A DNA stretch of 64,000 nucleotides, taken from Octopus vulgaris. Its lineage: Eukaryota. A model generated the notes under the pieces. It was not told the origin of the DNA. It did not search any database and worked only from the letters and a program-made list of their open reading frames with translations. Below, in pieces: positions 13,944 to 63,468 of this stretch. Numbering within the stretch: the stretch's first letter is position 1; every line of letters starts with the position of its first letter. The stretch lies in the NCBI GenBank assembly GCA_951406725.2, contig OX597816.1, positions 136,276,001 through 136,340,000 of the forward strand, read 5' to 3'. A program made the translations under genes and the position numbers.

Positions 13944-13994
<51 letters not shown>

Positions 13995-14356
13995 GAGATA
14001 GGGGTTGAAAATTCAACCCACCATGGGATAATATATATCCAATATACTGCTAGATAGGTACCCAACAAAATTAATACATAGATGTTAAAAATTGTCAAGC
14101 AATCAGTTCATCTATTGTATTAAATGGGTAAAGGTAATAATATTACCGTAAATTAATACTACAAAATTAGAGAATGGAGAAACATACTTAAATCAGTAAA
14201 ACATCAACTATCCGATGATACTCAATCCATACTTTAATACACCATTACATATGAGTAAAGGCAATATATAAAATGAAATGAGATATACAGTAATAGTAAA
14301 AGTAAAAAGATAAAGAGATATAAGTAAAAAAATTTCAAATATAATATGCAAATAAA

Positions 14357-14476
14357 TCAAAACTGACAGCTGTTTCGGCAGTGAGGACAGTCATACCTCA
14401 TTTAACCTATAAGCCATAAAGGCAGGTATAAATGAGGCATTAACAAGGATGCCCCACGGCCTCTTCAGAGAATTAA
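14357..14476 (-). ncRNA. Type-I hammerhead ribozyme (left-arm copy)
   Basis: Reverse complement of the motif at 15426-15545. Confidence 0.7.
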
Positions 14477-14818
14477 ATTAAATTTGTTATAATAGTGAAA
14501 AATATTATATAATCATATACATATAAATATAAAAATATAAAAATGTAAAATATAAAAACTTATACATCATAATGCTACACTTATATAATATAATACACAT
14601 TTGTACAAAAAGGAAGGTAAACAGAACAAAATAAAACAAAATATATAACAGTGTATATATTAATATTAATAAGTACCGATATTATACATATTTGGCTAAT
14701 AGTTTTTTTTTATAAAAAAAAAAAAAAAGGGCTAACACATATGGAGATGAAAAATAATAATTAAATCCGTGGTACAGTTCATAAAATTCTAAAGCTATAA
14801 AAGTTAATAAAAATTACT

Positions 14819-14868
<50 letters not shown>

Positions 14869-15023
14869 TAATAATAATAAAAAAATACTAAAAATAGATA
14901 CAGTTAAGTAAGCACCAAGTCTATCCTTTCAAGATCGAAATAACATAGTTATTTCGATCTTGAAAGGATGGACTTGGTGCTTACTTAACTGTATCTATTT
15001 TTAGTATTTTTTTATTATTATTA

Positions 15024-15088
<65 letters not shown>

Positions 15089-15425
15089 AGTAATTTTTAT
15101 TAACTTTTATAGCTTTAGAATTTTATGAACTGTACCACGGATTTAATTATTATTTTTCATCTCCATATGTGTTAGCCCTTTTTTTTTTTATAAAAAAAAC
15201 TATTAGCCAAATATGTATAATATCGGTACTTATTAATATTAATATATACACTGTTATATATTTTGTTTTATTTTGTTCTGTTTACCTTCCTTTTTGTACA
15301 AATGTGTATTATATTATATAAGTGTAGCATTATGATGTATAAGTTTTTATATTTTACATTTTTATATTTTTATATTTATATGTATATGATTATATAATAT
15401 TTTTCACTATTATAACAAATTTAAT

Positions 15426-15545
15426 TTAATTCTCTGAAGAGGCCGTGGGGCATCCTTGTTAATGCCTCATTTATACCTGCCTTTATGGCTTATAGGTTAA
15501 ATGAGGTATGACTGTCCTCACTGCCGAAACAGCTGTCAGTTTTGA
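15426..15545 (+). ncRNA. Type-I hammerhead ribozyme with extended stem II and palindromic stem III
   Basis: CTGAAGA (15434-15440), GGCCGTGGGGCA...TGTCCTCACTGCC, GAAA (15526-15529), CAGCTG TC; GUC cleavage triplet ends at 15537; ACAGCTGT is self-complementary; stem I is imperfect. Confidence 0.7.
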
Positions 15546-15745
15546 TTTATTTGCATATTATATTTGAAATTTTTTTACTTATATCTCTTTATCTTTTTAC
15601 TTTTACTATTACTGTATATCTCATTTCATTTTATATATTGCCTTTACTCATATGTAATGGTGTATTAAAGTATGGATTGAGTATCACCGGATAGTTGATG
15701 TTTTACTGATTTAAGTATGTTTCTCCATTCTCTAATTTTGTAGTG

Positions 15746-15795
<50 letters not shown>

Positions 15796-51570: not shown

Positions 51571-52496
51571 GGGATCTTTTCGCTTTGGCCAGCAGATTTT
51601 TAAAATAATTTCTTTGTAACTAAATACTTTTAAACTTCGTAAACTGGTAGAATGTGCTTATAAAACATTTTTTTCTCTTGGCTTTCTTGAGAAAATTCTG
51701 TAGTTTGTAAGCTATTTGTTGTTTAATTTCTTGCATTTCGGCAATTTCAACCAATCAATGACGTCTATTGAGGTGAATACAATATCTCTGGATCTTTGTC
51801 AACAACAATTATTTGCAGTGTCATATGAATCTGTCACTGTTATTTATGAGAAAAAAGATACCCTGTGACCATAAACTAAGGGGTCTCTCGTAAACAGAGC
51901 TGGATAACAAAACCATTCCCTCTTTAGTGTCCACCCATAATTATGACCCTAGTATCGATCTATTGCATTTCAATCTGTTTTAGGGTTAGGGTTGGGTTAG
52001 AGTTAAGGTTAGGGTTAGTGGGTATCTTTTTTTCTTCAGAAATGTAAATAACCCCAATCTCTTTCTTAAACAAATATATAATATGTAATGTGTGTATCTG
52101 TGCAACAGAAAGGGAAATTAAAACTGCATATGTTGTGAGCTTAGAATATATGTTTATTAATAAAAGTTTAATAACGATAATCTTTTATTCATACAAACGT
52201 AACTGATATGAAATATGTCATAGATAACAATGACAGATTCATATGACACCGCAAATAATTGTTGTTGACAAAGATCCGGAGATATTGTAATCACCTCAAT
52301 AGACGTCATTGATTGGTTGAAATTGCCGAAATGCAAGAAATTAAACAACAAATAGCTTACAAACTACAGAATTTTCTCAAGAAAGCCAAGAGAAAAACAT
52401 GTTTTATAAACACATTCTACCAGTTTACGAAGTTTAAAAGTTTTTAGTTACAAAGAAATTGTTTTAAAAATCTGCCGGTCAAAGCAAAAAGATCCC
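51571..52496. mobile_element. GGGATC-family fold-back MITE with a 6-bp TSD, inserted in a SINE-B
   Basis: AGACAC|GGGATCTTTTCGC...GCAAAAAGATCCC|AGACAC; inverted arms of about 260 bp; internal (TTAGGG)n near 51980-52020. Confidence 0.88.
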
Positions 52497-61190: not shown

Positions 61191-61204
61191 ATTTTTTTTT
61201 ATCC

Positions 61205-62360
61205 TGATATTCACGACTTTCTGAAGGATAGAAGTCAGGTGGTAGTAGCCAATGGGGCCGACTCCAATGACACGCAAATAGTGAGCGGTGTTCTGCAAGG
61301 CACTGTTTTGGGACCACTACTGTTCATAATGGCCCTCTCAGACATGCCCTCAGCCACACAGAGAGCCACAATCACAAGTTATGCAGATGATACAAAAGTT
61401 TCACAGGTAATACAGAACCCTGAAGACACTATGCACCTGCAATGTGAGCTGGATGAAATATACAAGTGGGCTGAAAAGAATAGCATACAGTTTAATGCTG
61501 AAAAGTTTCAAGCTTTGTGCTATCAGCATGCAAAACTAAATGCAATACCCAATAAATACAATGGATCTGGAGGGATTGCAATCCCAGAGACACAATCAGT
61601 GCGAGACCTGGACATTTACATGAGTAATGATGCAACCTTCCATGTGCATGTTGCTAAATTGGCAATGAAATGTAGGCGGCTGACCGGATGGATTCTTAGA
61701 ACTTTTAGAACAAGAGGCCAGGAAATCATGATGGTCCTCTGGAGGACACTTGTCCTAAGCCACTTTGACTATTGCTCTCAGCTATGGTCACCAACCAGTG
61801 CCAAATTAATCTCAGAACTTGAGGCAATCCAACGAAGCTACACAAAGAAGATAGCCTCTATGCAGCATATAAGCTATTGGGAAAGATTCAAGAGATTAAG
61901 ACTCTATTCATTAGAGCGTAGGCGAGAAAGACATGCCATAATATACATCTGGAAGGACTTGTCCCAAACTTTGGCATCGAGAGTTACACAAATACTAGAA
62001 CTGGGTGCCACTGCATAATGCCAAGGACTCCAAATTTTCCATCAAGATGTAGGACAAGATACTGAAATAGCCTGGGTTTCAGAGGTCCACAGCTCTTCAA
62101 TATCCTCCCGAAGGACCTGAGAGACCTGCATGGAGTGGATGTAGGTGTCTTGAAAATAAAGCTGGACCTCTTCCTGTCAGGTGTCCCAGATGAACCAACT
62201 TCGCGGCAGGAGGTGTAGATGAGGGCAGCTGCATCAAACTCTCTCATGCACCAAATGTCAATTGCTAAAAAGCATTCATAAAGTAAAATTATATTGCAAC
62301 TCCAAATGGCAGTGCCCCAGCATAGCCACAGCTCATGAGCTGAAACTAGATGAAATAAAT
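61205..62360 (+). mobile_element. CR1-group LINE 3' RT portion and 3' UTR
   Basis: [47 protein letters not shown]; downstream GPQLFNILP and VPDEP. Confidence 0.92.
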
Positions 62361-62920
62361 ATATATATATATATATATTGATAAAACGGTAAGATAACAA
62401 AAGAAAGAAAGAGACCTCAATATTATGTAAATAGAGGAAATTTATCTATACAATATGTTACATTACTCGGTAGTCAAGATAAAACTCTGAGTTTCAGATG
62501 CCGAAGTGGAAATCCACAACACCATCTCTTCGGTTATCTGGCTATTTGAAAACGTTATGAAAAAATACCGTTAAAAATGAAGGGAAATTACTCTGTTATA
62601 ACTCTGCTTTGCCTGCGTACTTATACATCGCTCGCATTTTTCGTCATAAAAATTATATAAAAATACATAAAAAATATATAAAAATATATAAAAATATATA
62701 AAATCTTCTTGGGACATAACACAGAAAGCATGTTCTATCCGTTTTCTTTAGGGGACCAAAAACGTAACAGAAATTTAGTCACATGTGGGCATGATCCGAA
62801 AAGTTCTGTCCTTGTATTTAGACATGTGGTAGGGTCTAAGCTGCTTTTCCAGATAAGCCATCTCTCCATGTCGCATAAACCGCACCTTCCGCTGCCGTTA
62901 GTATAGGGCTTACATCTGGC

Positions 62921-63121
62921 CAATGGAAGATTTTGGCCAGATGTAAGCCCTATACTAATGGCAGCGGAAGGTGCGGTTTATGCGACATGGAGAGATGGCT
63001 TATCTGGAAAAGCAGCTTAGACCCTACCACATGTCTAAATACAAGGACAGAACTTTTCGGATCATGCCCACATGTGACTAAATTTCTGTTACGTTTTTGG
63101 TCCCCTAAAGAAAACGGATAG
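62921..63121 (+). pseudogene. Penelope-like element GIY-YIG endonuclease C-terminus (mirror copy at 62735-62923 on the minus strand)
   Basis: QWKILARCKPYTNGSGRCGLCDMERWLI...CLNTRTELFGSCPH..KFLL fits the PLE C-terminal pattern W.IL...Y....C.LC..E...LN.R.E....C.H. Confidence 0.75.
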
Positions 63122-63316
63122 AACATGCTTTCTGTGTTATGTCCCAAGAAGATTTTATATATTTTTATATATTTTTATATATTTTTTATGTATTTTTATA
63201 TAATTTTTATGACGAAAAATGCGAGCGATGTATAAGTACGCAGGCAAAGCAGAGTTATAACAGAGTAATTTCCCTTCATTTTTAACGGTATTTTTTCATA
63301 ACGTTTTCAAATAGCC

Positions 63317-63379
63317 AGATAACCGAAGAGATGGTGTTGTGGATTTCCACTTCGGCATCTGAAACTCAGAGTTTTATCT
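63317..63379 (+). ncRNA. Type-I minimal hammerhead ribozyme variant (mirror copy at 62477-62539 on the minus strand)
   Basis: AGATAA CCGAAGA GATG..GTGGA tt TCCAC..CATC t GAAA CTC a GAG TT TTATCT: 6-bp stem I and near-palindromic stem III; core U4-to-C change and GUU site. Confidence 0.6.
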
Positions 63380-63408
63380 TGACTACCGAGTAATGTAACA
63401 TATTGTAT

Positions 63409-63468
<60 letters not shown>

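Follow-up and report, generated by a model that had tools for sequence, protein, structure and literature searches.

The palindrome at 62,379-63,413 of the window (the whole 64,000-nucleotide stretch of Octopus vulgaris contig OX597816.1 that was analysed) is a non-coding insertion in (TA)n, in which two 5'-truncated copies of a young Penelope-like element (PLE), a retrotransposon of the Hydra clade, are joined head to head. It was probably made when both cut strands of the target primed reverse transcription (RT) on one RNA and the resulting ends were joined. Taken alone the locus is ordinary, as the young family to which it belongs has at least 1,270 exact tail ends, and its value is that of a sample, since the youth of the family, its intact ORFs and its two sharp ends allow rules to be counted among the sisters: the pairing of a tail end with a short end, the freedom of either arm to be the longer one, the single haplotype of the two arms and the hot spot at unit position 2422.

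A palindrome with 481-bp arms, a 9-nt spacer and (TA)n flanks had been described in the earlier note, and a repeat finder run on the window recovered it, with arms at 62440-62923 and 62933-63416 that lie 9 nt apart and measure 484 nt with three nucleotides of TA counted and 481 nt without them (Table 1). The only internal difference between the arms is a CpG C>T change at 62959 in the right arm. The left arm had correctly been seen to be longer at its 3' end, the excess being 64 nt instead of about 65 bp. (TA)n adjoins both outer ends, and the flanks are different unique sequence on each side; the duplicated part includes no flank sequence, and the arm that is shorter at its 5' end is the one that is longer at its 3' end. 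The plus-strand frame does continue through the spacer as QWKIL, up to a stop at 63121, and the peptide that starts at 62921 was found as described, with a length of 66 aa and not 67. The arms turn near-symmetrically, their 5' ends being offset by 12 nt, at a 3-nt microhomology (CAA). Because the left arm has no mismatch to the reference unit and the right arm a single one, the insertion is very young. The junction of the window occurs only once in the whole genome (2.8 Gb), and an amplified ready-made palindrome or MITE was rejected on this ground. As for the surroundings, a 5'-truncated LINE-type RT fragment at about 61200-62350 (Pfam RVT_1, E 1.8e-9) has a long (TA)n tract on one side and, on the other, the (TA)n in which the PLE is inserted; an inverted repeat at 51571-52496, with 279-nt arms (96%) and 368 nt between them that hold TTAGGG-like repeats, resembles a non-autonomous DNA transposon.

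Table 1. Features of the palindrome and of the comparison element, in window positions; unit positions are those of the reference, one natural tandem unit of 2,590 bp (L033:3910-6499).
Feature	Position	Strand	Compared with
Comparison element: head-to-head insertion, second Hydra-type family; 3-nt spacer, 1-nt microhomology, tail on left arm	13991..15748	.	
(TA)n target, left side	62360..62378	.	sequence
Left arm, 5'-truncated, unit 2046-2590, long (tail) end, 0 mismatches in 545 nt	62379..62923	-	L033:3910-6499
One-sided tail, 64 nt, between both fixed 3' ends, unit 2527-2590	62379..62442	-	
Left-arm hammerhead-type motif, predicted cut after 62483	62477..62539	-	layout of Hydra HHR table
Left-arm ORF remnant: C-terminal end of nuclease domain with stop codon	62735..62923	-	
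Head-to-head junction: CAA 62921-62923, spacer 62924-62932, TTG 62933-62935	62921..62935	.	
Right arm, 5'-truncated, unit 2034-2526, short end, 1 mismatch in 493 nt (62959)	62921..63413	+	
ORF remnant: residues 643-708 (last 66 aa) of 708-aa RT-GIY-YIG protein; CxxC, conserved E and N, CxH	62921..63121	+	
Type I hammerhead-type motif, Hydra format, CCGA core variant, predicted cut after 63373	63317..63379	+	
(TA)n target, right side	63414..63465	.	

The PLE origin proposed in the earlier note is borne out by full-length sisters and by the folds of their protein. Searching the animal's own genome (2.8 Gb) gave 1,142 candidates (40 scored), many at 100% identity, and among twenty fetched loci the full-length sisters are 99-100% identical and form tandem units of 2,590 bp, several of which can lie complete within one insertion (L032, L033, L034, L046 and L078). 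Sisters carry intact ORFs of 708 aa, counted from the first Met, whose C-terminal end is the peptide of the window; at the same five loci a single array can hold intact together with frameshifted ORFs. In the predicted structure of the 708-aa protein (pLDDT 87.5), the best structural match of the RT part was telomerase (Z 16.7, rmsd 4.0, 335 aligned). For the model of the C-terminal 159 aa (pLDDT 93.2), the top four of 48,161 chains were I-TevI (Z 8.6, rmsd 2.4, 90 aligned), T4 EndoII, UvrC and a 5hmC restriction nuclease, which are all GIY-YIG nucleases. Foldseek gave a weak match for this domain (E 0.1), and Pfam reported for the full ORF GIY-YIG alone, below cut-off (E 0.013). No RVT_1 score was obtained from Pfam on the 708-aa protein and no Pfam family on the 66-aa window peptide, and alignment A2 had no match (0) among the sequences of solved structures. 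The peptide had been called a GIY-YIG tail, which holds insofar as it is the C-terminus of the nuclease, but the window has only its last 66 aa and the GIY-YIG motif itself is absent from it.

The protein further contains RWK (KRMRWK) and, in place of DKG, DKT (SDKTKN), both of which are kept in alignment A1. The CxCX5C linker before the nuclease reads CSCRNKELC, with C8, C10 and C16 invariant in 57 sequences, and within the nuclease CxxC and CxH flank the invariant E and N, without CCHH. The combination of RWK, DKT, CxCX5C, CxxC and CxH around E and N, and no CCHH is how the Hydra clade is defined in the parts of PMC8557442 covered here. The unit length (2,590 bp, below 3 kb) and the (TA)n target are likewise those of the clade, and the TA target suggested earlier recurs among the sisters, 64 of 66 loci being TA-rich on both sides; the tandem or inverted pLTR with a one-sided tail is the organisation of EN+ PLEs. 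As every Hydra motif tested is present, the element is, on the evidence of its sequence, a Hydra-clade PLE. Naiad, Neptune and Poseidon identities were ruled out by the C-terminal EN, the presence of DKT and the absence of CCHH. The homologue search returned 484 proteins, with 41-52% identity among the 120 listed. The family RT (L031:5798-7924) has YKDD and GAGIC where 29 of 29 aligned relatives have YRD and either GA-E or SA-D, and the family with this variant is nonetheless very young and abundant.

The hammerhead-type (HHR) motif, placed about 200 bp past the ORF end in the earlier note, starts at 63317, 196 nt past the stop codon. It was recognised on comparing it by eye with the Hydra HHRs tabulated in the PMC8557442 supplement, and by its letters it matches the Hydra HHR format and is a putative ribozyme. 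Among 157 matches the core was CCGAAGAG in 146, CCGATGAG in 9 and CCAAAGAG in 2, and 155 of the 157 have the CCGA core variant, whereas each of the 26 Hydra rows tabulated, as far as PMC8557442 was covered, has CTGA; in the same by-eye comparison the family matched no HHR row, Hydra-1_oBim included. No hammerhead was found among 93 Rfam matches at E<=1, and the RNA of the HHR region folded no better than shuffles (z -0.5 and -1.0). Those Rfam matches were AT-repeat microRNA noise, and a microRNA hairpin was rejected (mir-3473, 39 bits against a cut-off of 71.8). Should a read-through transcript be made, its 480-bp hairpin would be likely to sequester the predicted hammerhead.

Useful constraints on the origin of the palindrome come from its sisters. 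Exact end patterns joined to (TA)n were counted in the whole genome, giving 554 short ends and at least 1,270 tail ends, and the census sample consisted of 100 tail ends, all on contig C1, together with 41 short ends in the same span, which gave 111 regions. Loci L031-L050, chosen for long matches and partly duplicating C1 loci, were excluded from the census and from the haplotype and insert counts. A head-to-head junction was present in 75 of the 111 regions and a second arm was absent from 36. Both outer ends were in view at 74 junctions, of which 66 paired a tail end with a short end and 8 a tail end with another one (2 with other short ends, 6 with internal breaks), while neither two tail ends (0) nor two short ends (0) were ever combined. 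In 29 of the 66 loci the short arm reached further 5', in 30 the tail arm did, and 7 were ties. Turning points vary among the sisters and outer ends are fixed, which is the pattern that the earlier note had proposed to look for in genomic copies.

Twenty of the 66 turns fell in a hot spot at unit 2395-2475, the limits of which were set after inspecting the data, and 10 arm ends lay exactly at 2422, 8 nt 5' of the hammerhead; insertions of the hot spot are tiny palindromic stubs. Our guess is that 2422 marks the 5' end of the RNA, or the transcript start. Outside the hot spot, near-symmetric turns were enriched about fivefold: of 46 loci, 4 turned within 15 nt, where 0.72 would be expected (P 0.006), and 9 within 50 nt, where the expectation is 2.37 (P 0.0003), and in the other 37 of 46 loci the 5' ends of the arms were more than 50 nt apart. 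Junctions carry 2-4-nt microhomology or inserted bases, the latter in 29 of 66, and 7 of 16 inserts of at least 5 nt copy nearby sequence. At insertion-free junctions outside the hot spot, microhomology of at least 2 nt was found in 16 of 27, compared with 17.6% expected (P 1.6e-6). Microhomology together with templated inserts is the signature of end-joining of the polymerase-theta type. Where the arms are truncated more than 50 nt apart (43 loci), they agreed at 78 of 82 variant calls, a discordance of 4.9% against 59% in 2,000 permutations. Shared private variants numbered 15 in 10.8 kb of near-symmetric loci versus 12 in 29.4 kb of distant ones, a density comparison for which L031-L050 were pooled after removal of 5 duplicates.

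The second palindrome of the window belongs to another family, with 1,527 candidates in the genome, a unit of about 5.6 kb and a tail of about 165 nt. Its protein carries RWR, DKT and CxCX5C and has 39% identity to that of the 708-aa family over 507 aa (N-terminal part and RT) and 35% over 129 aa (nuclease). The lack of obvious similarity between the two palindromes that had been noted was confirmed by blastn, which gave no match at E<=1, and so was the shared architecture, as tail and short end were paired in 10 of 10 head-to-head loci of the second family (9 of 12 fetched and the window). Both palindromes look Hydra-type and seem to follow the same pairing rule. The second family also has a hammerhead-type motif with a long stem II and a folding z of -4.0, and its ORF is broken into pieces in the fetched copies.

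For the insertion in the window, we consider it likely that each cut target strand primed a cDNA from one and the same source RNA, the starts being two fixed sites some 64 nt from each other, one per strand, and that the 3' ends of the two cDNAs were likely joined at the 3-nt microhomology CAA, by host end-joining that would be of the polymerase-theta type. Strict pairing and 50:50 polarity would both follow from two cDNAs primed at two fixed sites, one per strand, and the split of 29 against 30 in the longer arm is what two separately truncated cDNAs would be expected to give. Truncation cannot be fully independent, because near-symmetric turns are enriched; the one in the window might reflect a brief snap-back of one cDNA that is handed to the other, or a trailing RT catching the leading RT. 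Snap-back may thus be a contributing step, also at the window locus, which falls in the near-symmetric class. The shared arm haplotype points to one RNA or one source copy, although a single active master copy or gene conversion could also lead to such agreement, and the denser shared private variants of the near-symmetric loci fit gene conversion, or an arm that was copied from its partner.

The earlier note had offered hairpin self-priming or template switching as the origin, and the latter wording fits the data better: in the window the arm that would serve as template is without a tail, among the sisters the short arm may be the one that reaches further 5' (29/66), and outside the hot spot the truncation points of most arm pairs are far from each other. 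The left arm cannot be the product of a plain snap-back, because a folded cDNA copies only what it holds and the loop belongs to the arm that has no tail. The tail would need a further step, and such a scheme, in which a self-primed cDNA folds back into a hairpin on a tandem RNA and its open end is then resolved by the nuclease in a staggered cut, so that one arm keeps the tail, seems unlikely to us but deserves serious consideration. The excess of near-symmetric turns and the identical haplotypes of the arms agree with it, as does the CAA/TTG stem with a 9-nt loop that can be drawn at the window junction, and 'EN-mediated resolution' is the origin given for the tail by Craig et al. (PMC8557442, in the parts covered). 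However, the stagger would have to run in either direction about equally often (29 vs 30) and the loops would have to exceed 50 nt in 37 of 46 loci outside the hot spot. The hairpin, when forced at the window junction with its 3-bp stem, is unstable (+0.6 kcal/mol), and CAA is not diagnostic of a hairpin since short microhomology is common where arms are far apart. Both ends, moreover, match the two RT start sites of the only in vitro system found (PMC11167929, in the passages covered).

Self-priming on an antisense transcript, by which the inverted junction would be formed already at the RNA stage as for rotifer Penelope elements, has been put forward for PLE junctions of the head-to-head type that contain palindromes (PMC3846280, as far as covered), and read-through of arrays with inverted arms would be expected to yield antisense RNA. 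Alone it leaves the strict pairing of tail and short end (66/74, none alike) unexplained, and no pre-formed palindromic template has been amplified, as the window junction is unique and those of the sisters differ; we regard it as very improbable. Still less credit can be given to a later inverted duplication of one insertion by DNA repair or replication slippage: near-identical arms and repair-type microhomology are what it predicts, but in 66 of 74 sisters the duplication would have stopped where the element has its own ends, and in the window it would have taken in no flank sequence and given the arm with less 5' sequence more at its 3' end; the fixed, unequal outer ends largely refute it. 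That the palindrome is an assembly artefact, a chimeric fold-back long read, is extremely unlikely. No junction-spanning read was seen in the public data, where contigs from four read runs were short in this high-copy repeat, but those contigs show many short fold-back joints of the element family, the flanks are unlike and unique, the ends are unequal and family-specific, the arms differ by one substitution, and 75 sister loci as well as the second family share the anatomy.

Both the architecture and the idea of self-priming are already in print (PMC8557442, PMC3846280), and what is new here is a family member of a known clade with the published layout, the sister census of which adds constraints on mechanism. 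According to the parts of PMC8557442 covered, PLEs in general insert at microsatellites and come with a tail of 30-40 bp on one side and a 5'-truncated copy in inverted orientation, and Penelope-13_HM of the Hydra clade is listed with a 5'-truncated inverted copy; the covered parts of PMC3846280 and PMC4209133 hold, respectively, the 2013 proposal of self-priming from junction palindromes in rotifer PLEs and hammerheads in PLE repeats, including opposite-strand pairs. Our family resembles the Hydra clade of Craig et al. 2021 (PMC8557442) in its single ORF, unit below 3 kb, RWK, DKT, CxCX5C, (TA)n target and HHR format, and differs in tail length, 64 nt here and 165 nt in the second family versus the 30-40 bp stated for PLEs. 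With EN+ PLEs such as Pen2a_Av it shares head-to-head arms, a one-sided tail and a junction palindrome, but the tail is optional there (PMC8557442, PMC3846280, parts covered), whereas here 66 of 74 junctions combine tail and short end, none has like ends and either arm may extend further 5'. No statement of this strict pairing rule was found in the literature searched, which took in a minority of the subscription journals, and the covered parts of PMC9977147 and bioRxiv 10.64898/2026.07.22.740005 held nothing further on junctions.

The closest experimental parallel is the Poseidon PLE PAc (Frangieh et al. 2024, PMC11167929), for which the covered passages describe in vitro cutting and extension of both target strands, an AT-rich target and two RT starts that bound a tail. 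PAc belongs to another clade, its RT starts lie within the ORF while those here are in the 3' pLTR, and they are reported as non-homologous, whereas the ends in our family are on TA-like letters able to pair with the target; the head-to-head junction is not modelled in the passages covered. PLE second-strand synthesis and the formation of inverted repeats are named as open in the covered parts of PMC8557442 and PMC11167929. Any mechanism of PLE integration must meet the rules of the census, and these are open to in vitro test. On balance, we slightly favour the view that double priming is the default of Hydra-type PLEs, with a dimeric enzyme, two fixed sites and one RNA giving one cDNA per cut strand, and end joining in place of second-strand synthesis. 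If this is true, every two-armed insertion would necessarily bear the tail, which would then not be an optional extension, and the strict pairing, the polarity and the common haplotype of more than a thousand young ends would amount to population-scale evidence on the missing step in which PLE transposition makes its second strand. In LINE-1 twin priming, both target strands also prime cDNA and microhomology joins the cDNAs into an inverted structure, the second priming being internal so that the two parts barely overlap. In contrast, both cDNAs would here start near the same 3' end, and the arms therefore overlap and form a palindrome.
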